This document shows, piece after piece, positions 12,997 to 50,344 of a stretch of 64,000 nucleotides of DNA (position 1 is its first letter; each line of letters starts with the position of its first letter). The position numbers were made by a program, and so were the translations under genes. Under the pieces are notes generated by a model. It was not told the origin of the DNA. It saw only the letters and a program-made list of their open reading frames with translations, and searched no databases. This stretch comes from Minisyncoccia bacterium. Its GTDB lineage: Bacteria > Patescibacteriota > Minisyncoccia > Phycocordibacterales > UBA9973. The DNA lies in assembly GCA_038251535.1 (NCBI GenBank), contig JBBSBF010000001.1:2232-66231 (forward strand), written 5' to 3'.

Positions 12997-14688
12997 GTGG
13001 AGATGACTCAATCTCAAGCACTCGATATATTGAAAACAGGGGCAAATGTTTTTTTAACTGGAGAACCCGGGTCTGGCAAGACTCATACGGTCAACGTCTA
13101 TGTGGAGTATCTGCGCGCGCATGGGATCGAACCAGCGATCACTGCGTCGACCGGTATTGCTGCGACACACATTCATGGGCAGACGATTCATTCGTGGAGT
13201 GGTATCGGGATCAACCGTACACTTTCACCGTACGATATCGATCGTATTGCAACCACCGAACACGTCGTCAAACGAATACAAAAAACAAAAGCGCTCATTA
13301 TCGATGAGATCTCAATGATCGATGCTACCACACTTGATATGGTCGATACTATTCTTCGAGCGATCAAGCAAAACGATGAGCCATTTGGTGGTATACAGAT
13401 CGTGATGGTGGGGGATTTTTTTCAACTGCCACCGATCACACAAGTAGGGCAACAACCACACTTTGCTTTTGTAGCCTCAGTGTGGGGTCGGATGAAGCCA
13501 GTCATTTGTTATTTGACCGAACAACATCGCCAACGAGATACTGAGTTTCTCTCCCTTCTCTCTGCAATACGAAAAAATACCTATGGTCCAGAAGATCACC
13601 GTGTTATCGAACGCAAGCTCTATCAACCAACTGACGATGTCATCCATGACTTTACTGCAACACGATTGTTTTCTCACAATAAAAATGTCGACGCGATCAA
13701 CACCGTAGAGCTCAACAAACTACCGACTCTTTCAACGTGTTTTCTGATGCAAAGCAAGGGGAGGGAAACACTTGTCGCGCAATTAAAAAAGGGTTGTCTT
13801 TCTCCCGAAGAACTCGAACTAAAGATCGGTGCAGTGGTCATGTGTACAAAAAACAACCAACAAAAGGGCTATGCAAATGGGACTCTGGGCACGGTCCTTG
13901 GATTTGAGCCGGGAACGAAGTTTCCCATTATCGAAACAAAAGATGGCATACGTATCACGATCGAACCAGCAGAATGGATCATCGAAGAAAACGGTAAAAC
14001 AAAGGCAATGATTACGCAAGTCCCGCTTCGGCTCGCGTGGGCTATTACGATTCACAAAAGTCAGGGAATGAGTCTCGATGCGGCAGTGATGGATCTGCGA
14101 GATGTCTTTGAATACGGACAAGGATACGTTGCACTCTCGCGAGTCCGCTCACTCGACGGGCTACATATTTTGGGTTGGAATAGACAGGCGTTTTTGGTCC
14201 ACCCTCAGATTTTGGAAAAAGATCAGTATTTTATGCGTCAATCCGAATCAGCGGCTGCGATTTTTGGCGATATGTCGCAGATAGAACGAGAAAAGATGCA
14301 GCACAACTTTGTCCTCGCCTCAGGAGGAGTGGTAGATCGTGTTAAGAAGAAATCAACAAAGAAAGTTGCAGGGGATACGTTTCAAACAAGTCTTGCGCTT
14401 GTGTTACAAGGCAGGTCTATCGGAGAGATTGCAAAGGAGCGCAGCTTGGCCCCCGTGACCATCATTGGGCATATAGAAAAACTCGTACAACAACGTAGGT
14501 TGGGCGTTGCCGATATTATCTATCTTATCGATAAAAAAACGTTCAGTGGATTTGAAGATATCAAGGCGACATTTGTAAGTCTGGACACATCTAAACTTAC
14601 TCCGATACGTGAACATTACAATGGTAAGTTTACCTATGAACAATTGCGGTTCGCTCGGATGCTGATAGAGCTCGGTTATCCACACTAA
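12997..14688 (+). CDS. PIF1/RecD-like SF1 ATP-dependent DNA helicase with C-terminal HTH
   Basis: Walker A LTGEPGSGKTH; Walker B LIIDEISMID; GDFFQLPPI; UvrD_C_2-like ITIHKSQGMSLD; C-terminal helix-turn-helix region. Confidence 0.85.
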   Translation: MEMTQSQALDILKTGANVFLTGEPGSGKTHTVNVYVEYLRAHGIEPAITASTGIAATHIHGQTIHSWSGIGINRTLSPYDIDRIATTEHVVKRIQKTKALIIDEISMIDATTLDMVDTILRAIKQNDEPFGGIQIVMVGDFFQLPPITQVGQQPHFAFVASVWGRMKPVICYLTEQHRQRDTEFLSLLSAIRKNTYGPEDHRVIERKLYQPTDDVIHDFTATRLFSHNKNVDAINTVELNKLPTLSTCFLMQSKGRETLVAQLKKGCLSPEELELKIGAVVMCTKNNQQKGYANGTLGTVLGFEPGTKFPIIETKDGIRITIEPAEWIIEENGKTKAMITQVPLRLAWAITIHKSQGMSLDAAVMDLRDVFEYGQGYVALSRVRSLDGLHILGWNRQAFLVHPQILEKDQYFMRQSESAAAIFGDMSQIEREKMQHNFVLASGGVVDRVKKKSTKKVAGDTFQTSLALVLQGRSIGEIAKERSLAPVTIIGHIEKLVQQRRLGVADIIYLIDKKTFSGFEDIKATFVSLDTSKLTPIREHYNGKFTYEQLRFARMLIELGYPH

Positions 14689-15599: not shown

Positions 15600-15657
15600 T
15601 TTCTAAGCCTTGTTTGAACAGGGCTTTTTTTATGTACAATTTGCTATACTAAACCAT

Positions 15658-17562
15658 ATGACCGTTCCGTATGATCCCGAACACATCACGTATTTTGCTG
15701 AAACTGATGCACGCAATCAGCGGATTAAATTTGGCATCAAAAGTCGTGATCGTACACGCCACATGTACGTCATCGGTAAAAGTGGCGTAGGGAAGTCGAC
15801 ACTTTTAGAAAACATGGCGATCCAAGACATCCAGCACGGAGAAGGTGTTGCAGTCCTGGATCCTCACGGAAGCTTTGCTGAAAAGATGCTCGAGTATATC
15901 CCCGAACACCGCATCAAAGACGTCGTGTATTTTGCTCCGTTTGATACGGACAACCCGATATCGTTCAACGTACTCGAAGACGTGGGTGCAGATCGTCGAC
16001 ACCTCGTCGTTTCGGGACTGATGAGTACGTTTAAAAAGATTTGGGTTGATGCATGGAGTGCGCGTATGGAGTACATCCTGACCAACACACTCCTCGCACT
16101 TCTCGAGTATCCAGGGGCAACACTTCTCGGAGTGAACCGCATGCTTTCTGAAAAAGGATTCCGGAAAAAAGTGGTAGAGAACATCACCGATGCGGCGGTC
16201 AAGGCGTTTTGGACTGAAGAATTTGCAAACTATACGGAACGAATGGCAGCAGAGGCAGTGCCCGCAATCCAAAACAAGATTGGGCAGTTCACCGCAAATC
16301 CACTCGTGCGCAACATCATCGGCCAATCCAAATCAACCTTTGATCTACGCAAGGTAATGGATGAACAAAAGATACTGATCATCAACCTCTCCAAAGGACG
16401 CATCGGAGATACCAACACGAGTCTTCTCGGTTCGATGATCATTACCAAGATATATCTTGCAGCCATGAGTCGTGCAGAGCTTTCACAGAGTCGTATGGGA
16501 GGACTACCCAACTTTTATTTCTACGTTGATGAATTTCAATCGTTTGCAAACGAGACGTTTGCCGATATCCTTGCAGAAGCTCGGAAATACAAACTTGCGC
16601 TTATCATTGCGCATCAGTATGTAGCACAAATGGAGGAAAAGGTGCGTGATGCAGTATTTGGAAACGTTGGTACGACGGTGTCGTTTCGCGTGGGACCACT
16701 CGATGCCGAGCTCTTGGAAAAAGTCTTTGCACCACAGTTTACGCAAAACGACATCATCAACCTCGGGATGGCTGAGATTTATCTTTCACTCATGATCAAC
16801 GACATCGGGTCACCACCGTTTTCTGCTCGGACTCTCGCACCCTTGGCGCGTCCTGCTATAACATTTCGCAATGACGCAATCGAATCATCGCGTAGTCAGT
16901 ACGCATTTCCAAAAGAAACAGTAGAAAAAAACATCGCAGAATGGTTTGCCGCAGGTAGCGAGCCGGTGGAGGATAAAACACAAAAGAAAACTCGTTTTGT
17001 AGAGGGTGATCGATCAGTGCAAGCATTTTCTCCGCGACCTTCGTACCCAGAGATACGGACCGCTTCAACAGGTCCTGGACAGACAAAGACCCCGCACACA
17101 TTTCCACCTAAAAAAGTAACACCAGCAACCCATAAACCATTTGCCAAAGCATTGATAAAGCCCGTAGTCTCGCAGGTATCCACAGATTCTCCGGCTCCGC
17201 AATCTGATGTAGTACAAAAAGAAGATAACCCACAGCCGTCTTTGACACTAAAGCATCTCCTGGATTCTCTCGATACTACCGCTCCACCGATAGTAATGAA
17301 AGATAAACCAGAATCCCCATTTGTCGGTGAGAAGCCACTTCGCGAAAGTGTTTCGCCAGTCAAACACGCCGAACGCGGTCCTACAGAGAAAAATCGCGAC
17401 CTTCTCAAAATGGCGCTACAAAAGGCAACTCAGCAACAACCATTGCGGACAGAAAAAACAGAAACTGAAGCAGTGAAAACGGTGTCTGCTGACAGCACAA
17501 CATTAACGGCAAACCACACGAGCGAAGTTTCTTCCGATGCCCTAAGGCAACTATTGGAATAA
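15658..17562 (+). CDS. P-loop ATPase of the VirD4/TraG/HerA-FtsK (DUF87-like) superfamily with a long disordered P/T/S-rich C-terminal tail
   Basis: Walker A VIGKSGVGKSTLLEN; Walker B-like FYFYVDEFQSF; LALIIAHQYVAQ motif; no N-terminal TM; last ~200 aa low-complexity. Confidence 0.6.
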   Translation: MTVPYDPEHITYFAETDARNQRIKFGIKSRDRTRHMYVIGKSGVGKSTLLENMAIQDIQHGEGVAVLDPHGSFAEKMLEYIPEHRIKDVVYFAPFDTDNPISFNVLEDVGADRRHLVVSGLMSTFKKIWVDAWSARMEYILTNTLLALLEYPGATLLGVNRMLSEKGFRKKVVENITDAAVKAFWTEEFANYTERMAAEAVPAIQNKIGQFTANPLVRNIIGQSKSTFDLRKVMDEQKILIINLSKGRIGDTNTSLLGSMIITKIYLAAMSRAELSQSRMGGLPNFYFYVDEFQSFANETFADILAEARKYKLALIIAHQYVAQMEEKVRDAVFGNVGTTVSFRVGPLDAELLEKVFAPQFTQNDIINLGMAEIYLSLMINDIGSPPFSARTLAPLARPAITFRNDAIESSRSQYAFPKETVEKNIAEWFAAGSEPVEDKTQKKTRFVEGDRSVQAFSPRPSYPEIRTASTGPGQTKTPHTFPPKKVTPATHKPFAKALIKPVVSQVSTDSPAPQSDVVQKEDNPQPSLTLKHLLDSLDTTAPPIVMKDKPESPFVGEKPLRESVSPVKHAERGPTEKNRDLLKMALQKATQQQPLRTEKTETEAVKTVSADSTTLTANHTSEVSSDALRQLLE

Positions 17563-17563
17563 T

Positions 17564-18871
17564 ATGAAGTACAGTATCCTCATTCTAATCTTTTGTTGGT
17601 TATTGAGTGCATCGTATGCGAATGCTCAAATACACATCACCGAGATAGCATGGATGGGTACTGCCAACAGTCAGTATTCAGAATGGATAGAGCTATACAA
17701 TGACGCGACAACTTCGGTAAATCTTGCAGGTTGGAAGCTGTACGAATCAAGCAGTACGCTCATCATCGCTCTTTCCAAAACGATTGCAGCGCAAGGGTAT
17801 TTGTTAGTTGAACGAACGACGGCAAGTGCTCCCGATGCAGTACCAGGAGTTGATGATGAGGCAGGTTCTTTTGGTGGTGGAGGACTTGCCAATACTGGTG
17901 AGAAACTCATTCTCAAAGATGCAAATGGGAGTACAGTCGAATCACTGGACTTTAGTAGTGGGTGGCCAGCCGGAGATGCAACAACAAAACAAACGATGCA
18001 GTGGACGGGGAGTGATTGGATTACTGCCGACCCAACCCCAAAGGCACCGACAGCTACCTCACAAGGCACCACTGAGGATACTGTACCGACCGTCGAAGAT
18101 TCCGATCCCATCCCAAAAGTATCTCCCAACAAGCCGTACATTGCATTTGAAATACCACCTGTAGTGTATAGCGGTACCGCACATGAGTACAACGCTCATC
18201 CAGTTTATGAATACAACTATCAGTTTGATACAGGTAACATGTACTGGAACATGGGGGACGCGACGATGTATCGACAAAGCGCAATCGCGCCCGTCGTGCA
18301 CACGTATCAGTTTCCTGGAACGTACACGATCTCGTACTCGTTCGCAGATCCTGAAAACCGCCAACTTCCACTCACTGGCACCAAAAAAATAACCGTCGTA
18401 GCTCCCACGTTATCACTCACCACGCTCAATCACAAAGCACTCGTCATACAAAACAATGCACCACAGCCGATCGATCTAACGGGATGGAAACTCAATACGC
18501 CTGATAAGGTCATAGCGATACCTGACCAAACGATCATCGCCGAAGGAGCAACTATCGCATTACCATTTTCTATACTTTCGATTACGAGCGATACGTATTT
18601 TTCTATCACTGATCCTTCAGGTGTACTCGTGGCAACTACAAAGCCTGGGCAGGTACCAGTTGTAACATCGCGATCTTCAGCGCCTACCACTGTCCTGGCT
18701 GACGAATCAACCCTTACTCCTTCGGCTGAAATTACAGAAAATCCGACAACACCTTCACCAGAAAAAGCTCCAACAAACAAGCGCACCAGGACATATATTC
18801 TTGGTGCGCTTGGTATATTCGTTATAGCCTTGTCGTTACTCCTTGAGCGTTTTATGGCTCGACAGGAGTAG
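17564..18871 (+). CDS. Secreted lamin-tail-domain (LTD) protein with C-terminal membrane anchor
   Basis: Signal peptide; LTD signature ITEIAWMGTANSQYSEWIELYN...GWKL repeated (second LTD near residue 290); C-terminal TM ILGALGIFVIALSLLL. Confidence 0.65.
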   Translation: MKYSILILIFCWLLSASYANAQIHITEIAWMGTANSQYSEWIELYNDATTSVNLAGWKLYESSSTLIIALSKTIAAQGYLLVERTTASAPDAVPGVDDEAGSFGGGGLANTGEKLILKDANGSTVESLDFSSGWPAGDATTKQTMQWTGSDWITADPTPKAPTATSQGTTEDTVPTVEDSDPIPKVSPNKPYIAFEIPPVVYSGTAHEYNAHPVYEYNYQFDTGNMYWNMGDATMYRQSAIAPVVHTYQFPGTYTISYSFADPENRQLPLTGTKKITVVAPTLSLTTLNHKALVIQNNAPQPIDLTGWKLNTPDKVIAIPDQTIIAEGATIALPFSILSITSDTYFSITDPSGVLVATTKPGQVPVVTSRSSAPTTVLADESTLTPSAEITENPTTPSPEKAPTNKRTRTYILGALGIFVIALSLLLERFMARQE

Positions 18872-29741: not shown

Positions 29742-30254
29742 TTATTTCTTCTTTAAGCTCTCAATTTCATTTGAGAGTTTTTTTAATGTCTCCTGTATCG
29801 AGATGAGCATGTCGTGCTCTTTCTTTTCTTGTTGTGCTTCTGTAGTGTCGTCTTCTTCTATTTCTTCGATATCTTCCTGGATCTCATCAACGTCTTCTTG
29901 GATTTCGTCCACATCCTTTTGGATCTCATCAACGTCTTTTTCAATCTCTTCCACGTCTTCTTGGATCTCGCCGACGTCTTCGGCGATCTCTTCTATGTCG
30001 GCCGTGTTTTTGTTCACGGACATTTGGATAAATATAGAGAGATAGATCGCCTCGAGCGATACGATCGTTGTCATGACAAGCAGCATTCGATCAAATGGAA
30101 CCCCAAAAATGGGAAGAGAGAATGCCACAACAAAGAGTATCGTGTGCGTCACGAGTGACGCCGTCGATCCGATCCACTTTGTCGCAATATCTGCCCCACG
30201 TTCCAATTTGATGTTACTTCGTTTTGAGAAAGGCATAGGTATATGTTGTAACAC
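29742..30254 (-). CDS. DUF1003-family membrane protein with C-terminal acidic heptad tandem repeats
   Basis: ADIATKWIGSTASLVTHTILFVVAF (DUF1003 N-terminal signature), two TMs, then (E/D)(D/E)V(D/E)EIQ repeated ~8 times. Confidence 0.6.
   Translation of the reverse strand: MLQHIPMPFSKRSNIKLERGADIATKWIGSTASLVTHTILFVVAFSLPIFGVPFDRMLLVMTTIVSLEAIYLSIFIQMSVNKNTADIEEIAEDVGEIQEDVEEIEKDVDEIQKDVDEIQEDVDEIQEDIEEIEEDDTTEAQQEKKEHDMLISIQETLKKLSNEIESLKKK
29850..30000. repeat. 21-bp tandem repeat array inside the DUF1003 gene (encodes EDVDEIQ heptads)
   Basis: atcttc(c/t)tggat(c/t)tc(a/g)tc(a/c)acgtc units reiterated. Confidence 0.7.
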
Positions 30255-45533: not shown

Positions 45534-45565
45534 CATACATTTTGTGTTATAAAATATCAGCGTCT

Positions 45566-45760
45566 CGGGGAATCGTTCTCATGCTCCCGTTTTCTTAAAC
45601 CGAAGGTTTGTAGAAAACGCAGTGCAGAGAGAGCGAAGCTCGAATCGTAGTACGACGCGAGTCCTACTATTGGGGAATCGTCTGGTGGTGGGAATACAAA
45701 TGAATCTGCTTTCATTTGTATCCGGTTCCGAAGGAATGCAGTGCTTTTTGTAAACAAAGC
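45566..45760 (+). repeat. Cluster of partial tRNA-Gln copies (5' acceptor/D-arm and T-arm fragments) with an 11-bp perfect hairpin
   Basis: ggggaatcgt appears at 45567 and 45672 as well as at the true tRNA start 45762; gcgagtcctac at 45655 mimics the T-arm 3' half; hairpin atacaaatgaa-tctgct-ttcatttgtat. Confidence 0.5.
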
Positions 45761-45831
45761 TGGGGAATCGTCTAATGGTAGGACAACGGATTTTGGTTCC
45801 GTTTATCTAGGTTCGAGTCCTAGTTCCCCAG
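45761..45831 (+). tRNA. tRNA-Gln (anticodon TTG)
   Basis: Acceptor tggggaa/ttcccca; anticodon arm acgga-ttTTGgt-tccgt; T-arm ctaggTTCGAGTcctag; discriminator G; 71 nt. Confidence 0.85.
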
Positions 45832-45959
45832 CTTTGAGTGCAAATCACTGCAAGGGGATTTTGGTTCCGTTTACTATAGGTCCCTATTTTTAATGAACGA
45901 AGTGATTATAAAAATAGTGGATCTCGACCAGCGGAAGAGGCGAGTCCTAGTTCCCCAGC
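45832..45959 (+). repeat. tRNA-3'-end-associated element, Gln-locus copy A1
   Basis: Pseudo anticodon arm ggggattttggttccgttta, conserved core gaacgaagtgattataaaaatagtggatctcgaccagcggaagaggc, then cgagtcctagttccccagc (exact copy of the tRNA-Gln 3' 17 nt). Near-identical to 47182-47307. Confidence 0.7.
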
Positions 45960-46009
45960 AAACAAAAAACTGTATTTAATAAATACAGTTTTAAAATAGT
46001 TTTTTAATT

Positions 46010-46354
46010 TTAAGCAATGCCTAAAATCTTCCGCTCTTCCGGTGAAAGCTTTTTAAGTGCAGCTTCTTTAATTTTCAAAATTTCTTTTTCATCATCAAAG
46101 TGCAAGGCTGTTCTTGATTCATTCATAGTAAATCCATTTTTACCGTCTGAAAGTACAAATACTTCATCAACCTTTACTCTGTTAGAGTCATTTTGTTGCC
46201 CAGCAAATGCTTTAGCAACATCAGGGTTTTTGAAGAAACCAAGAGAAACAGGATTTAGTCCGTCTACGTCTACTCGGTAGACTTCGCTCATGAGAACAAT
46301 TTTATAAGAACTTAAATCTTGTCCAATGAGTTTCTCAAGAAATTTGTTTATCAT
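46010..46354 (-). CDS. Hypothetical protein (114 aa), cassette ORF 1
   Basis: Intact ORF with minus-strand terminator aaaaaactgtattta-ataaatacagtttt at 45962-45995. Confidence 0.45.
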   Translation of the reverse strand: MINKFLEKLIGQDLSSYKIVLMSEVYRVDVDGLNPVSLGFFKNPDVAKAFAGQQNDSNRVKVDEVFVLSDGKNGFTMNESRTALHFDDEKEILKIKEAALKKLSPEERKILGIA

Positions 46355-46400
46355 TGTATGGTAGTTTTAATTTAAATGGATATTATAATATTTCCTTTAT

Positions 46401-46442
46401 TTGTCAATCAATATGGTTCTAACATCGTCCCAGACCCCTAGC
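46401..46442 (+). repeat. Cassette boundary repeat R1
   Basis: ttgtcaatcaatatggttctaacatcgtcccagacccctagc. Confidence 0.65.
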
Positions 46443-46480
46443 AAATAAAAAACTGCATCAATTGTTGATGCAGTTTAAAG

Positions 46481-47101
46481 CTATCTATTCCAGAAATAGG
46501 CGAACAGGAAAATAATCACACCGCCACAGATAACAATCCATAAACGTAAGAGGAAGACCCTGATAGGAGTGTCGTGTACTTCAATAGGTGAACTAAACCA
46601 ACCAAAAGGACTTATAAAGCGTTTAATAATATTTTTCTGTATTGCTGAATAGATGATTACCCATTCTGCAACAAAAACATCTTTTCCGTTTTGGTTCATT
46701 CCTTTGATCTGCCAGATACATTCTGCGTGACATTTTGTCTCTGGAAGTTTTTTCTGTAAAAGTGTATAGGTATACATTATCTTATCTCCCATATTTACAG
46801 GGCGTAGGTAACGAATATTGTTATAACCTTTTGCAATAATTTCTGTAGGTTCGGCAAACTTGAGAATTTTAAAAATAAAACTTTCAGCTTGTGCCAGTGT
46901 GCTAATACCATGTCTAGCTAATCCGCCAAGTTTTGATTTGAAGTTTGTGGTCGTAAAGGGGTTAATATGAATGGGATTTAAATCGCCAGTCAAAAATCCA
47001 AACAGGAGTGTCCACAAGTATTTCGCCTTTTTCTTTGGGGAAGTATAGGTGTAGTTTTCTGGAATAGTAGCTATGTCTGAGTAAGATTTAAGGTACAACA
47101 T
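46481..47101 (-). CDS. Hypothetical protein with C-terminal TM (206 aa), cassette ORF 2
   Basis: Intact ORF; minus-strand terminator ctgcatcaa-ttg-ttgatgcag at 46453-46475. Confidence 0.45.
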   Translation of the reverse strand: MLYLKSYSDIATIPENYTYTSPKKKAKYLWTLLFGFLTGDLNPIHINPFTTTNFKSKLGGLARHGISTLAQAESFIFKILKFAEPTEIIAKGYNNIRYLRPVNMGDKIMYTYTLLQKKLPETKCHAECIWQIKGMNQNGKDVFVAEWVIIYSAIQKNIIKRFISPFGWFSSPIEVHDTPIRVFLLRLWIVICGGVIIFLFAYFWNR

Positions 47102-47140
47102 GCTATATGATTTTTCTGTATATTACATACTATTTATAAT

Positions 47141-47181
47141 TTGTCAATAATTCGGTTCGAATATCGTCCCAGGCCCTCAGC
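47141..47181 (+). repeat. Cassette boundary repeat R2 (tRNA-T-arm-like)
   Basis: ttgtcaataattcggttcgaatatcgtcccaggccctcagc; followed directly by element copy A2, exactly as the tRNA-Gln 3' end is followed by A1. Confidence 0.65.
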
Positions 47182-47307
47182 TTTGAGTGCAAATCACTGC
47201 AAGGGGATTTTGGTTCCGTTTACTATAGGTCCCAATTTTAAGAAAGGGAGTGATTATAAAAATAGTGGATCTCGACCAACGGAAGAGGCGAGTCCTAGTT
47301 CCCCAAC
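47182..47307 (+). repeat. tRNA-3'-end-associated element, copy A2
   Basis: ~95% identical to 45832-45959; ends gagtcctagttccccaac. Confidence 0.7.
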
Positions 47308-47364
47308 AAGTAAAAATAAGCAATAAAAAAAGAAGCAATTTTAATGCTTCTTAATAACTTTGTA

Positions 47365-47640
47365 CTAAAACCCATCTAATAAAAGTCTTGTGAACGCTAT
47401 CGTCCACATGACGATCAATCCGTATATATCTGCAGGAATTGTTTTCTGTGCCCCAGAATGTATGCCGTAGCCGATTCGACCAATGAAGATCGTACCCGAT
47501 AGAAAGGCAAAGAGGAAACTGGAGTGTATATGATGAGTAGTTATTCCAAAATATAATTCGTACCCGCCACCAATAGTTACATAAATAAATACAATGATTT
47601 TTGTTATGTTGCCCCATTTAGCAGCTTTTAGACTATTCAT
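47365..47640 (-). CDS. Small membrane protein (91 aa), cassette ORF 3
   Basis: Three predicted TM helices; preferred over the overlapping W/C-rich 47351..47617 frame; terminator hairpin at ~47318-47348. Confidence 0.4.
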   Translation of the reverse strand: MNSLKAAKWGNITKIIVFIYVTIGGGYELYFGITTHHIHSSFLFAFLSGTIFIGRIGYGIHSGAQKTIPADIYGLIVMWTIAFTRLLLDGF

Positions 47641-47685
47641 TTGTAAACGTTTTAATTAATTGTATTATAGCATTATTATTCTATA

Positions 47686-47729
47686 TTGTCAATGTAATAC
47701 AAGTTCTAACATCGTCCCACAGCCTCAGC
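47686..47729 (+). repeat. Cassette boundary repeat R3
   Basis: ttgtcaatgtaatacaagttctaacatcgtcccacagcctcagc. Confidence 0.65.
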
Positions 47730-47776
47730 TCGTAAAATGGAAATAAAAAAGTCTCTCAAAAAAGAGAGACTCTGGT

Positions 47777-48178
47777 TTAATTATTTCCCGCATTTTTCTT
47801 TGAAAGTAAATCAAGCTGCATGTCGATATCTATATCTTCCAATTTTGTATTTGGAAGATCGATTTGTAGACCAATACTTACAGAAAATTTATGCCCTTCA
47901 TTATTTAGGATACCTTGCAATTTTTCTTGAAGGAAAAGGTATTCACCCATAGGGGGTAAAATAATTTCTATTTCTTCAACAATTATTCCTTTGCGTACAC
48001 AGCTTCCTGCAAGAAACCCTATAATATGAAGTAGCTCTTTTTCAAACCCACGCATGTCTTCATTTTTGATAATAACAGGAATAGAAGCGGGTAAAGATTT
48101 TGTATAGGGAAGTATAATTTTAAAGAACTGGTTAGGTTGACGAACACAATACACAGTTTCAAAAGAAGTATTTATCAT
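47777..48178 (-). CDS. Hypothetical protein (133 aa), cassette ORF 4
   Basis: Intact ORF; minus-strand terminator agtctctc-aaaaaa-gagagact at 47748-47771. Confidence 0.45.
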   Translation of the reverse strand: MINTSFETVYCVRQPNQFFKIILPYTKSLPASIPVIIKNEDMRGFEKELLHIIGFLAGSCVRKGIIVEEIEIILPPMGEYLFLQEKLQGILNNEGHKFSVSIGLQIDLPNTKLEDIDIDMQLDLLSKKNAGNN

Positions 48179-48217
48179 CTTTTATTGTTTTTAGTATAAT
48201 GCTATATATTAACAATA

Positions 48218-48259
48218 TTGTCAATGATTTTAGTTCCAATATCGTCCCACAGCGCCAGC
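48218..48259 (+). repeat. Cassette boundary repeat R4
   Basis: ttgtcaatgattttagttccaatatcgtcccacagcgccagc. Confidence 0.65.
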
Positions 48260-48296
48260 AAACACAAAGGAATCGAACTTTTAGTATAATTAAGGC

Positions 48297-48845
48297 ATGT
48301 CAATAAAAATTACATATTTTGTTCATGGGACTACGACTGATAATGAGAACAATATTTCTTCAGGATGGAAAGATGTCCCACTTTCTGATCTCGGAATTAA
48401 GCAATCAATAGAACTAAAGGAACAAACGAAATATCAGAAATTTGATATAGTATTTTGCTCTGATTTAAGGCGCGCAGTTGATTCAGCAAAACTATCTTGG
48501 GAAGGCATGTATGAGATTATTCCTGATGCACGACTACGAGAATGTAACTACGGAAGCTTGAATGGTGCATCATCAGACATAGTTGAACCAATGCAGGAGG
48601 ACGAATGTATTGTGAATAAATTTCCAGAAGGTGAAAGTTATGAAGACGTCAAGATTAGAATTACAGACTTCCTCAAATTTCTAAAAGCTAACTATGATGG
48701 CAAACATATTGCAATAGTTGCTCACAAGGCTCCACAACTAGCTTTGGACGTTTTGATCAAAGGTAAGATATGGAAACAAGCGCTCGCCGAAGATTGGCGT
48801 AAAACTAGGTCTTGGAAACCCGGCTGGGAATATCAGGTTAACTAA
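48297..48845 (+). CDS. Histidine phosphatase superfamily (phosphoglycerate-mutase-like) protein, cassette ORF 5
   Basis: ITYFVHGTTTDNENN (RHG-type catalytic His in the hGtT context)...GWKDVPLSDLGIKQS...; 182 aa. Confidence 0.65.
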   Translation: MSIKITYFVHGTTTDNENNISSGWKDVPLSDLGIKQSIELKEQTKYQKFDIVFCSDLRRAVDSAKLSWEGMYEIIPDARLRECNYGSLNGASSDIVEPMQEDECIVNKFPEGESYEDVKIRITDFLKFLKANYDGKHIAIVAHKAPQLALDVLIKGKIWKQALAEDWRKTRSWKPGWEYQVN

Positions 48846-48848
48846 TCA

Positions 48849-48876
48849 AAGTTCTAACAACGTCCCACAGCGCCAG
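48849..48876 (+). repeat. Cassette boundary repeat R5
   Basis: agttctaacaacgtcccacagcgccagc. Confidence 0.6.
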
Positions 48877-48912
48877 CAAGTAAGTTTCAACATAATTTGA
48901 TATAATCATTTC

Positions 48913-49491
48913 ATGAATGAAGAAATGAAAAGTGGTCCGAGCCCTGAAGAAAAACAAAGATTAGAAAAGATTGCACAAGAAAAGGAAGAAAGTGAATGGT
49001 TACAAGATTACTTATCGAGACAACCTCAAGAGGAAGTGACTACTCCAGAAGAAGCTGCTGAGCTCGTGGCACGTTTTGAAAAATTGACATTGGCCTTTGA
49101 TGCAGCCCATTCTCTTGAGGCATTGCTATCAATAGAAGAAATTTCTTCTGACCTTGCGGAGTTGTACCTCAATGCCCCCATACTCGACAATCCATTACGG
49201 ATAATTGCGGATATAAAAACTTTAGAAAAGCACAATCCTACACACGTACCTATCTATAAAGCAAAGATTGAGAGGCTTCAGTCTTTGGTGTTGAACGACG
49301 AAGAGAAAAGAATATATAACTTGCGAATGGCTGCGCGTAAAGATTATGATTATATGAATATGATATTGGGATTTATTAAAAAATGTTCTTCTTTACCCAG
49401 TGATCAAGTTGAAGCACTTGCAAAACGAAGTAAGACTTACTCAAACGCTATTGGAATACTCAGAAACAATAAAATTGTTCACGATCTTTGA
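48913..49491 (+). CDS. Hypothetical protein (192 aa), cassette ORF 6
   Basis: Intact ORF between R5 and R6. Confidence 0.45.
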   Translation: MNEEMKSGPSPEEKQRLEKIAQEKEESEWLQDYLSRQPQEEVTTPEEAAELVARFEKLTLAFDAAHSLEALLSIEEISSDLAELYLNAPILDNPLRIIADIKTLEKHNPTHVPIYKAKIERLQSLVLNDEEKRIYNLRMAARKDYDYMNMILGFIKKCSSLPSDQVEALAKRSKTYSNAIGILRNNKIVHDL

Positions 49492-49505
49492 TTTTGGCGC
49501 AAATA

Positions 49506-49533
49506 GGTTCCAACATCGTCCCACAGCGCCAGC
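49506..49533 (+). repeat. Cassette boundary repeat R6
   Basis: ggttccaacatcgtcccacagcgccagc. Confidence 0.6.
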
Positions 49534-49846
49534 AAAATAGTTATAAAAAAACCACCCGAAGGCAGTTTAAAATAAGTGTCCAAGTAAGAACAGACTAGGA
49601 CCGTTAAAGGTACGGCCGACGTTCTCGAGAATGATCTTGCTTTGTATTTCGAGTCAGTCATATCAAATGCAGTCTGTATACTTAGACACTTATTAGGTAA
49701 TCAATTCTTCATTCAGCTCTATCTTCTGGGAAATGATAAGGATGTCCGGTCTTGTACTTCAAGATCCTTTGCAGAAGCGGGTGCAGAGATGACAGAAAAC
49801 GTAATTCAATTTGAATGTAGCATAGCTCTTAAAAAAGTTCAAACAT

Positions 49847-49863
49847 CAACCTAGACCTTCAGC
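49847..49863 (+). repeat. Cassette boundary repeat R7 (degenerate)
   Basis: gttcaaacatcaacctagaccttcagc; followed by AAATAAAAAG and a minus-strand terminator, as for R1. Confidence 0.4.
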
Positions 49864-49901
49864 AAATAAAAAGAGTGGCTGTTAGCCACTCTGCAAGTAT
49901 A

Positions 49902-50243
49902 TTATTTATTGCAATATTTTTTTGCTGCGGTATGTAAAACTTTAGGAATATTATTCAGAGCAAGAATCGATTTCGTTTGATATACATACGAAAGTTTCAA
50001 GGATTGAAAATTTTTAACAAAATATTGTTCCACTGATTCTATCGAATCAGTTTCTACTTTTTCATTTCTTGCACATTTACAGATGAACTGAATGAAATCA
50101 CTTTCACACTCAGCTATTTTGATATGAGGTACATTTCTGAGGGGAACAGTTTCTATTTTAGAATTTTCTCTCCGCCTTGTGAATAATACAATTGCAATTA
50201 TTATTGCAACAAAAAGCACTGATAAAATAAATATTAATGTCAT
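49902..50243 (-). CDS. Hypothetical protein with N-terminal TM (113 aa), cassette ORF 7
   Basis: Intact ORF; minus-strand terminator agagtggct-gtt-agccactct at 49872-49892. Confidence 0.4.
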   Translation of the reverse strand: MTLIFILSVLFVAIIIAIVLFTRRRENSKIETVPLRNVPHIKIAECESDFIQFICKCARNEKVETDSIESVEQYFVKNFQSLKLSYVYQTKSILALNNIPKVLHTAAKKYCNK

Positions 50244-50284
50244 ATCTATATATTTTATTCTACTATACTCAATTTAATTTATAT

Positions 50285-50309
50285 GTCAACATCAACCCAA
50301 ACAGCTAGC
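50285..50309 (+). repeat. Cassette boundary repeat R8 (weak)
   Basis: gtcaacatcaacccaaacagctagc. Confidence 0.25.
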
Positions 50310-50344
50310 GAACACTTTTCGGTCAGATTTGATACAATGAAATT

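Follow-up and report, generated by a model that had tools for sequence, protein, structure and literature searches.

Introduction

What kind of element carries one and the same core behind different tRNA genes, and ends in a copy of the 3′ end of whichever tRNA it lies beside? The question is raised by a 64,000-nt stretch of DNA from a Minisyncoccia bacterium, a member of the candidate phyla radiation (CPR; GenBank assembly GCA_038251535.1, contig JBBSBF010000001.1, positions 2,232 to 66,231 of the forward strand). In this stretch, called the window below, a short element occurs three times, once after a tRNA-Tyr gene and twice in association with a tRNA-Gln gene. A sequence-only reading of the window had proposed three explanations for it: a footprint left behind by integrative elements that target tRNAs, a small non-autonomous mobile element, or an intron-like or ribozyme-like insertion in duplicated tRNA pseudogenes. 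It also considered that the core might be an outward-firing promoter.

Here, we compare the window copies with one another and with public CPR genome and metagenome loci, which are labelled L001 to L035. The element looks like a mobile element rather than a tRNA intron, a ribozyme or a promoter, and its most fitting description is a new and very small form of integrative DNA that targets tRNAs and carries a hairpin mimicking its target. More specifically, we tentatively take it for a miniature, gene-less and non-autonomous insertion cassette, specific for tRNA 3′ ends and moved in trans by an unlinked recombinase, a proposal to which we give somewhat less than an even chance. No description of such an element was found in the literature by title and abstract, in a search of incomplete coverage on cassettes of CPR bacteria and Saccharibacteria, tRNA integration, folded attP sites and cis-mobilizable elements.

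Results

Three copies of one element in the window

The three-copy repeat is real and not a product of chance. Its most conserved stretch, ATCTCGACCRNNGGRAGAGGC, matches at positions 1432, 45921 and 47269, whereas shuffled sequences are expected to give 0.01 match, and in a covariance model of the element the copies reach 91, 93 and 79 bits (E values of 1e-18 to 1e-22). All three are on the + strand. The loci named by the sequence-only reading, 1359-1477, 45832-45959 and 47182-47307, were confirmed by these matches and by a direct check of the sequence, and the similarity of about 80% reported between the Tyr and Gln versions survived alignment, the Tyr core and that of the first Gln copy being 81% identical over 64 aligned positions. 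A unit consists of a spacer, often with a terminator hairpin, the 3′ end of its own tRNA in inverted copy, the conserved core, and the same 3′ end again in direct orientation. The tRNA-Tyr and tRNA-Gln genes upstream are both complete, with 63-64 bits in the Rfam tRNA model.

The target of the Tyr copy is the tRNA-Tyr gene (anticodon GTA; 1234-1317, + strand; called by ARAGORN, 63.7 bits with Rfam). The spacer (1318-1363) forms an intrinsic-terminator-like hairpin with arms at 1319-1331 and 1346-1358, followed by a T run and then CATATG; a similar TTTTTTCATAT(T)G tail also trails the spacer hairpin of L023. In the left arm (1364-1386), the reverse complement of the tRNA-Tyr T arm, GCAGGATTTGAACC, is exact over 14 nt at 1373-1386, and the T arm itself, at 1295-1308, is the left arm of this perfect inverted repeat. 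The left arm pairs with the 3′ region of the tRNA across the terminator, so that a nested palindrome is formed, and its duplex energy with the cognate tRNA is the best among eight tRNAs. The core (1387-1452; model match at 1382-1458, 91.3 bits) contains GTAGG, an AT-rich hairpin designated P2 (about 1390-1434, including the TATAAAAAC strand) and a candidate for a second hairpin, P3 (CTCGACC-GAA-GGGAGAG, about 1434-1450), and ends in GGC. The right arm (1453-1472) carries the direct copy of the tRNA 3′ end: CTGCCCGACGCACAAT is repeated exactly over 16 nt at 1305-1320, within the 3′ segment of the tRNA, and at 1457-1472.

The first Gln copy follows the tRNA-Gln gene (TTG; 45761-45832, + strand; ARAGORN and Rfam). 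Its spacer, TTTGAGTGCAAATCACTGCAA (45833-45853), forms a small AGTG/CACT hairpin and is missing from the empty tRNA-Gln sites of four relatives. The left arm (45854-45877) is not an inverted 3′ end. Rather, it is a direct copy of about positions 27-53 of tRNA-Gln, in which 18 nt of the anticodon arm, GGATTTTGGTTCCGTTTA, are exact at 45856-45873; this bears out the earlier observation that the Gln copies begin with an anticodon-arm copy. The GGGGA of this left arm is able to pair with TCCCC in the right arm. The core (45878-45940; model match at 45871-45947, 92.7 bits) comprises P2, with a G-C to C-G swap relative to the other copies, and P3. The right arm (45941-45959) reproduces the tRNA-Gln 3′ end at 19 of 19 nt (CGAGTCCTAGTTCCCCAGC, left copy at 45814-45832) and is followed by AAAC.

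The second Gln copy (47182-47307, + strand; 78.7 bits) lies 1.35 kb distal of the first, inside an array of gene cassettes. It has no tRNA directly upstream; it comes immediately after an array repeat (47154-47181), a 27-nt sequence resembling the tRNA-Gln 3′ end. Its spacer (47182-47202), left arm (47203-47226), core (47227-47288) and right arm (47289-47307) are all in place, but P2 is damaged by the loss of one base and a changed apex, and its fold has a z-score of -0.26, versus -1.77 for the first copy.

The sequence-only reading stated that the last 15-17 nt of each copy are an exact duplicate of the 3′ end belonging to the tRNA immediately upstream. This is the case for Tyr (16 nt) and for the first Gln copy (19 nt); in the second Gln copy, which is not downstream of a tRNA, 18 of 19 nt agree. 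On the left, the inverted arm of the Tyr copy (14 nt, 1373-1386 versus 1295-1308) had been overlooked, and this inverted flank, made of the T arm and 3′ end of the tRNA, is present in the Tyr copy and in all non-Gln relatives.

A compensated stem in the core

The conserved part is about 65 nt long, not 55 as first thought; it starts with (G/A)TAGGT(G/C)CC and includes the 5′ strand of the stem that pairs with the TATAAAAAT box. This box is the 3′ strand of P2, an AT-rich stem whose 5′ strand is CTATTTTTA. P2 was predicted by RNAalifold on ten sequences. It is 94% paired on the alignment and five of its pairs have changed on both sides in a compensatory way (in Gln, for instance, a G-C has become C-G, and in Tyr an A-U has become G-C); the observed score was reached by none of 500 shuffles. 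P2 also holds an invariant G.U pair, and the + strand, which is the strand of the tRNA, is therefore favoured as the one that folds. The small hairpin P3, CTCGACC-nnn-GGrAGAG, is invariant across copies, so that covariation neither supports nor refutes it. For the whole unit of L002, the predicted fold has a z-score of -4.3 as RNA and -3.7 as DNA, with an arm helix of 17-18 bp. On both sides the core is flanked by sequence derived from the T loop, TCGAACC on the left and CGAnTCC on the right.

A motif, (A)CGAAGTG(A), able to form an AC-GAA-GT mini-hairpin, recurs in the spacers and cores of units that differ otherwise (L001, 1548-1556; L002, about 2735-2745 on the - strand; window, 45899-45909; L022, about 410-420 on the - strand). 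Triloop hairpins GCGAAGC and CCGAAGG are also common, and many loops are of the form C-GAA-G. Such triloops are unusually stable in DNA.

Searches with Rfam 15, at gathering thresholds over the whole window and at E≤10 over the three element regions, returned tRNAs only, the sub-threshold matches to the element being far below; no known tRNA intron or non-coding RNA family was thus recognised in it. A TATAAA-like AT-rich box is present in every copy. No sigma-70-type site (-35 and -10 hexamers 16-18 nt apart) was called in 1359-1477, 45833-45959 or 47182-47307, by a consensus from which that of CPR bacteria may differ. The contexts downstream of the copies vary and include convergent genes and terminators, and several copies are bracketed by terminator hairpins.

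Relatives at other tRNA genes

With the window copies, the family sharing the core has 11 members, the other eight being public CPR loci. In 185,579 species genomes the core pattern occurs at four loci, one labelled Paceibacterota and three Saccharibacteria, and in 241 million metagenome records it occurs at four true loci among 13 matches; the other nine matches fall by chance in GC-rich coding DNA, as do all six matches of a 16-base core pattern in viral contigs. With the core as query, blastn gave nothing meaningful in 50,697 phage and 72,556 plasmid records, and the covariance model, run over about 240 kb of CPR loci, added no further family copy except for one weak match beside a tRNA-Tyr gene. 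The sequence-only reading had envisaged complete elements carrying the core next to an integrase: the genome, metagenome, viral, phage and plasmid collections scanned yielded no full-length element with it.

At all eight public loci, the core lies 5-70 nt downstream of a tRNA gene and on the same strand: tRNA-Lys in L001, L003 and L004, tRNA-Arg(TCT) in L002, L012 and L015, tRNA-Arg(GCG) in L023, and tRNA-Gly(GCC) in L022. Overall, the 11 copies are all on the strand of their own tRNA, and all except the second Gln copy are directly downstream of it. Over the different genomes, the core accompanies at least seven tRNA species. At its right end, each public copy repeats the tRNA in direct orientation, starting at about C56 of the T loop and stopping 1-4 nt beyond the discriminator, and the left end is an inverted copy of the same region, decayed to a varying degree. 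Exact direct repeats of 16-21 nt of the tRNA 3′ segment stand beside an intact tRNA. Inverted arms can be as faithful (22 of 22 nt match the own tRNA in L023), and the duplex energy of the left arm with its cognate tRNA is the best, or tied for best, in six of eight copies. Ten of the 11 copies have an identical compact layout, 110-190 nt long, without internal genes or a conserved open reading frame (ORF). In L023, and in the related unit of L033 described below, the left arm is perfect and the right arm decayed. This suggests that the left arm functionally pairs with the copy nearest the tRNA and that the distal one is a displaced remnant. The right arm is also decayed in L003.

Occupied and empty sites, and the fate of copies

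The gene order relA-topA-dprA-serS-ftsQ-dus-dnaX-tRNA-Gln is conserved in four relatives of the window genome, whose dnaX genes are 74-79% identical to that of the window. In these relatives, AAAC or AAAT comes immediately after tRNA-Gln; in the window, TTTGAGTG... stands there, and the AAAC flank is found after the right arm. The unit thus appears as an insert of 127 nt, including the 19-nt duplication. At a second locus, composed of trmH, tRNA-Lys and a thioredoxin-like gene, L001 and L003 carry the unit and L015, L029 and L032 have an empty site, and the downstream promoter and gene are recognisably homologous in both states.

Copies close to the tRNA are intact, and those further away, the second Gln copy and a distal Tyr remnant, are degenerate. 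This remnant (1473-1686, + strand) is tentatively regarded as a probable older tandem Tyr copy, on the basis of an inverted repeat, a model score of 11.4 bits (E 1.2) and an 11-nt direct match; it may have been displaced outward by the newer unit. Its terminator hairpin has arms at 1467-1486 and 1492-1511, the stem reaching back into the preceding tRNA-end copy, and is followed by a degenerate core (1623-1681) and, at 1676-1686, by a further incomplete copy of the tRNA-Tyr 3′ end, AAATCCTGCCC.

The similarity of the cores tracks neither the host genome nor the tRNA. Identity reaches 91% between the Tyr core and the Arg core of L002 and 92% between the first Gln core and the Lys core of L004, whereas Tyr and Gln, in one genome, share 81%. 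Between L012 and L015, the whole unit, from spacer to right arm, is identical at 123 of 124 positions, and identity drops right after the right arm, the flanking genes being about 75-80% identical and the spacer between tRNA-Val and tRNA-Arg about 60%.

The same layout with other or minimal cores

The same architecture is found with unrelated cores in L022, after tRNA-Pro(TGG) and tRNA-Gly(TCC) (250-860, - strand), and in L033, after tRNA-Lys(CTT) (2150-2400, - strand). In L033, the tRNA 3′ end and the terminator form a perfect palindrome of 56 bp that runs through the T run of the terminator. Minimal versions also exist. In L034 (2300-2380), an insert of 58 nt has a 13-nt direct repeat and a 9-nt left arm located 5 nt before the right arm; the others are in L029 (3620-3700; 60 nt, with a 15-nt repeat) and L035 (2790-2866). 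The units of these five loci follow tRNA-Pro(TGG), tRNA-Gly(TCC), tRNA-Lys(CTT), tRNA-Lys(TTT) and tRNA-Arg(GCG). The core is reduced to 5-10 nt in L034 and L029, and the tip of the hairpin ranges from 5 nt in L034 to about 70 nt in the main core family.

When repeats of the tRNA's own 3′ end (direct, at least 11 nt, or inverted, at least 9 nt) were counted within 300 nt of the tRNAs of the CPR loci compared, they were found downstream of 15 of 35 tRNAs and upstream of none, a downstream fraction that is inflated because several loci were chosen for carrying the element. Five or six of the positive tRNAs were bystanders.

The cassette array after tRNA-Gln and its surroundings

Downstream of the first Gln copy, the region 45960-50310 is an array of single-ORF units of 330-740 bp, each closing with a 27-nt direct repeat, GTTCYAAYATCGTCCCACAGCGCCAGC, that resembles the tRNA-Gln 3′ end (sites at 46415, 47154, 47702, 48232, 48850, 49506 and 49836, and a weaker one at 50282). 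The repeats are followed by CAGC|AAA(T/C) and then usually by a terminator, and minus-strand ORFs have their own TTGACA/TATAAT promoter beside the repeat. L025 has the same array repeat (9665, 10213, 10696 and 11311) and layout with other genes, and the same META-domain gene at the end. Both Gln copies occupy the positions of ORF-less units in the array. An inverted partner of the 27-nt repeat was searched for and none was found, so the gene cassettes are not hairpin sites of the same type. No integrase was found near the array; dnaX/holB lies upstream of tRNA-Gln.

In L026 (9388-17047) and L027 (9048-17041), variable islands follow tRNA-Gln, with a large serine recombinase gene at the far end. 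Their cargo consists of defence genes (two ThsB-TIR proteins, a restriction enzyme and two methylases) or of assorted small genes. In L027, the 3′ end of the serine recombinase gene overlaps a tRNA-Ala gene.

On the other side of tRNA-Gln, the spacer that separates it from dnaX (45560-45760) is 227 nt in the window, versus about 50 nt in L025 and L026. It contains two extra direct copies of the tRNA-Gln 5′ end, GGGGAATCGT at 45567 and TGGGGAATCGTCT at 45671, a piece of T loop and stem, CGAGTCCTA, at 45658, and a perfect 11-bp hairpin, ATACAAATGAA/TTCATTTGTAT, and it folds very stably, at -80 kcal/mol. The whole resembles a set of insertions in mirror image, placed 5′ of the tRNA. The only other assembly with an identical DnaX protein, L024 (Logan contig SRR19962010_789818), stops about 80 nt past the gene, the repeats of this region apparently breaking short-read assemblies there.

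Elsewhere in the window, the proteins coming closest in a scan for recombinases were a TrwB-like coupling ATPase and a PIF1 helicase. They belong to a cluster comprising a PIF1-type helicase with a helix-turn-helix domain (12997-14688), an ATPase resembling TrwB and the coupling proteins of type IV secretion systems (15610-17562) and a lamin-tail-domain protein (17564-18871), which may be related to DNA transfer or uptake. At 29849-30016, seven tandem copies with a 21-nt period code for heptad-like repeats, in a minus-strand ORF (29742-30254) with a weak match to DUF1003.

Discussion

A proposed gene-less cassette that mimics its target

Among the explanations offered at the outset, a small non-autonomous mobile element is the best supported, by the empty sites, the exact duplication, the decay of distal copies and the incongruence of the cores. 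Insertion would proceed by conservative site-specific recombination between the segment of the tRNA running from the T loop to the 3′ end and the identical segment of the element, with the crossover either at the T loop or at the extreme end of the tRNA. A recombinase encoded elsewhere would act in trans; we place it outside the window because none was found in it. New units would enter beside the tRNA and older ones would be moved away from it, as happens in integron arrays, tycheposon islands and ssrA islands. The tRNA often receives a terminator from the spacer. With less confidence, we suggest that the inverted arm, pairing with the tRNA-end copy, may form a long + strand hairpin that replicates the duplex target from a single strand, and the recombinase may read this hairpin form, as for integron attC and CTX-phi attP sites, the core being the variable tip. 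A role at the DNA level is favoured over one as RNA, because terminators separate the tRNA from the unit in several copies and because the L033 palindrome crosses the T run.

Several observations weigh against this proposal. No recombinase or transposase domain, Phage_integrase, resolvase and Y1_Tnp included, was found by Pfam in the 59 window ORFs of at least 100 aa, and the helper recombinase is therefore hypothetical. No autonomous, gene-carrying relative with the same core was found in the collections scanned. The core pattern is rare (four loci in 185,579 species genomes and four in 241 million metagenome records) and its copy number low, so that there is no sign of recent bursts. The presence and absence of units is compatible with deletion between direct repeats as well as with insertion, and the conservation of the whole L012/L015 unit fits a selected host function as well as it fits a young mobile element. 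The gene-carrying cassettes have no inverted arm, so the array does not need a hairpin, and the Gln copies lack such an arm too. Lastly, the proposal does not explain how one core came to be joined to different tRNA arms; that cores are exchanged between arms through the conserved T-loop motif flanking them is only a guess.

The explanation can be extended. The units may be the recombination sites of an undescribed CPR cassette system, in which an unlinked recombinase reads a single-strand hairpin replicating the target and also inserts the single-gene cassettes at tRNA-Gln, the core being an exchangeable tip that moves between arms via the T-loop motif. A target-mimicking mechanism like those of integrons and CTX-phi would then operate at tRNA genes. 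We regard this larger scheme as unlikely.

Other explanations

A different possibility, which we find quite unlikely, is that the unit encodes a structured small RNA that imitates the upper half of the tRNA beside it. Its two arms would pair into a helix resembling the acceptor and T stems and ending in the discriminator, with P2 and P3 in place of the T loop; such an RNA would arise when transcription from the tRNA promoter reads through, and its targets would be tRNA-handling enzymes or, through a left arm antisense to the 3′ end, the tRNA itself. The constant orientation of the copies, always on the tRNA strand, would be accounted for, as would the compensatory changes and the invariant G.U of P2, which favour folding of the + strand, the RNA fold and 17-18 bp arm helix of L002 (z-score -4.3), and a whole unit conserved between L012 and L015 as much as the tRNAs are. 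However, stem covariation is equally expected of single-stranded DNA. A strong terminator hairpin with a T run stands between tRNA and unit in the Tyr copy, L023, L033 and L004, with no room for a promoter after it, and promoter-like sites within the copies were not found; in L033, whose palindrome crosses the T run, the right palindrome arm is left untranscribed when termination works. Moreover, the unit is dispensable at orthologous sites, the helix between the arms is not always kept (the right arm is decayed and the left perfect in L023, L003 and L033), and Rfam has no match.

The units could instead be passive scars, that is the att-side ends of larger tRNA-integrating islands or prophages that have lost their interior, the core being the attP arm that bound the integrase. 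This we consider improbable to the same degree. The classic mark of integrase-mediated integration is a direct repeat of a tRNA 3′ end, as described for tycheposons (10.1101/2020.12.28.424599); a large serine recombinase sits at the far end of the tRNA-Gln islands of L026 and L027, and 1.2 kb of genes separate the two Gln copies. Against this, the compact layout and its internal boundaries are the same in 10 of 11 copies across genomes and tRNAs, an outcome that independent deletions would not give, no full-length element with the core turned up in the genome, metagenome, viral, phage or plasmid collections, and a unit is identical at 123 of 124 positions where neutral DNA is about 60-80% identical, which is unlike a scar. 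Of the footprint first proposed for the element, site-specific insertion at a tRNA 3′ end is therefore retained, and the footprint itself is not.

It is very unlikely that the units are local palindromes that do not move at all, in which a terminator hairpin was extended by template switching that copied the tRNA 3′ end, the core spreading by gene conversion on the T-loop motif. The left arm does mirror the tRNA 3′ end and its flank around the loop of the terminator (the nested arms of the window Tyr copy and of L023, and the 56-bp palindrome of L033), the stem of the terminator that follows the Tyr right arm likewise reaches into the preceding tRNA-end copy, and T-loop-derived TCGAACC and CGAnTCC bound the core on the left and right. 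But this leaves the direct duplication, the clean 127-nt insertion relative to empty sites and the spacer features shared at different tRNAs unaccounted for, and the occurrence of the same core in different genomes still requires horizontal movement.

An outward promoter with TATAAAAAT as its -10 box is extremely improbable, and so is an intron or ribozyme within a tRNA pseudogene that arose by duplication: an AT-rich TATAAA-like box is found in all copies and the Gln copies resemble a partial tRNA-Gln with the core replacing the T loop, but no promoter-like site was called in any copy, the box is the strand of a stem that pairs with the upstream CTATTTTTA with compensatory changes, downstream contexts differ (convergent genes, terminators), the tRNA is intact, the direct partial tRNA copy is confined to the Gln copies, the others lacking a direct tRNA body, and no intron, ribozyme or other Rfam family matches at E≤10.

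Further candidates were dropped: a retron RNA (no reverse transcriptase nearby), a guide RNA of TnpB, IS110 or a CRISPR-associated transposon (no such genes, and arms longer than known guides), a casposon-like 14-15 bp duplication (no terminal inverted repeats), a C/D-box guide (a bacterial host, and no boxes) and a retroelement primer-binding site (a layout that does not fit).

Comparison with known systems

In its behaviour the unit is like a cassette or cis-mobilizable element at an island seeded by a tRNA, and the logic of its hairpin recalls attC and the attP of CTX-phi. We nevertheless do not file the insertion cassette proposed here under integron cassettes, CTX-phi-type elements, tRNA-integrating islands or MITEs, since it lacks features that define each of them. 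Integron cassettes are the first comparison: like the element, they include small units without promoter or ORF, inserted serially at a fixed site with the newest nearest, and attC is an imperfect inverted repeat that folds on one strand, its stem structure being conserved and its tip variable. However, no intI gene or attI site lies beside the array, dnaX being upstream, and the seed is a tRNA gene; the element has no pair of RYYYAAC (R″) and GTTRRRY (R′) boxes, its stem is a copy of the target, and the gene-carrying units of the array end in a 27-nt direct repeat without an inverted partner.

The attP(+) site of CTX-phi, an integrative mobile element exploiting XerCD (IMEX), has inverted copies of its target tens of nucleotides apart, so that the single strand folds into a replica of the duplex target. 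The counterpart in the element would be the inverted and direct tRNA-end copies flanking the core, or flanking the spacer when the pairing is with the tRNA itself. Repeated integration of CTX-phi at one site also yields tandem arrays. In contrast to CTX-phi, the element targets a tRNA 3′ end and not dif, has no phage genome (a unit is 60-190 nt), and contains no Xer-type motif that we could identify. The use of single-stranded DNA by the element is an inference.

Tycheposons of Prochlorococcus insert at tRNA 3′ ends, leave partial tRNA direct repeats, are displaced outward, and have degenerate remnants deeper in the island (10.1101/2020.12.28.424599). Islands at ssrA in Dehalococcoides are reported to grow by accretion, through site-specific insertion at the 3′ end of the transfer-messenger RNA (tmRNA) gene (PMC3146451). 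Both share with the element the tRNA or tmRNA 3′-end target, the direct repeats, the serial displacement and the degenerate remnants; they differ from it in being kilobases long and in having their own tyrosine or serine recombinase, and an inverted copy of the target or a hairpin core is not reported there.

Cis-mobilizable elements (CIMEs) and miniature inverted-repeat transposable elements (MITEs) resemble the element in being gene-less, in keeping only their recombination sequences and in depending on an enzyme provided in trans. Unlike it, CIMEs are kilobases in size and flanked by the attL and attR sites of a known integrative and conjugative element, and MITEs have constant terminal inverted repeats and short target duplications. 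The repeats of the element copy the particular tRNA targeted and differ from site to site, and the start of its spacer and the end of its core are not inverted repeats of each other. The insertion sequences IS200/IS605, with palindrome-associated transposable elements (PATEs) and repetitive extragenic palindromes (REPs), offer strand-specific hairpins, ORF-less derivatives, insertion 3′ of a specific sequence and pairing of an internal sequence with the target. The element likewise has hairpins on one strand, and a direct repeat of the target that is possibly its own. The guides of IS200/IS605 are, however, of 4 nt, no target is duplicated, the hairpin sequences are unrelated, and no Y1/HUH transposase (Y1_Tnp domain) was found in the window.

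Significance for CPR bacteria

The genomes of CPR bacteria (Patescibacteria) are very small, and the ways in which these bacteria acquire and shed DNA are little understood. The element is a compact device that recurs at their tRNA genes and, in the window, it is tied to an integron-like array of single-gene cassettes beside tRNA-Gln, an array that relatives share with different genes. The units apparently account for assembly breaks beside tRNAs, such as that of L024 right after dnaX, and in uncultured lineages they flag hot spots of gene flux. Should the hairpin prove to be the substrate of recombination, the element would follow integron attC and CTX-phi as a third independent example of recombination on a folded single strand, and, as the site copies its target, the choice of target would be readable from the sequence.

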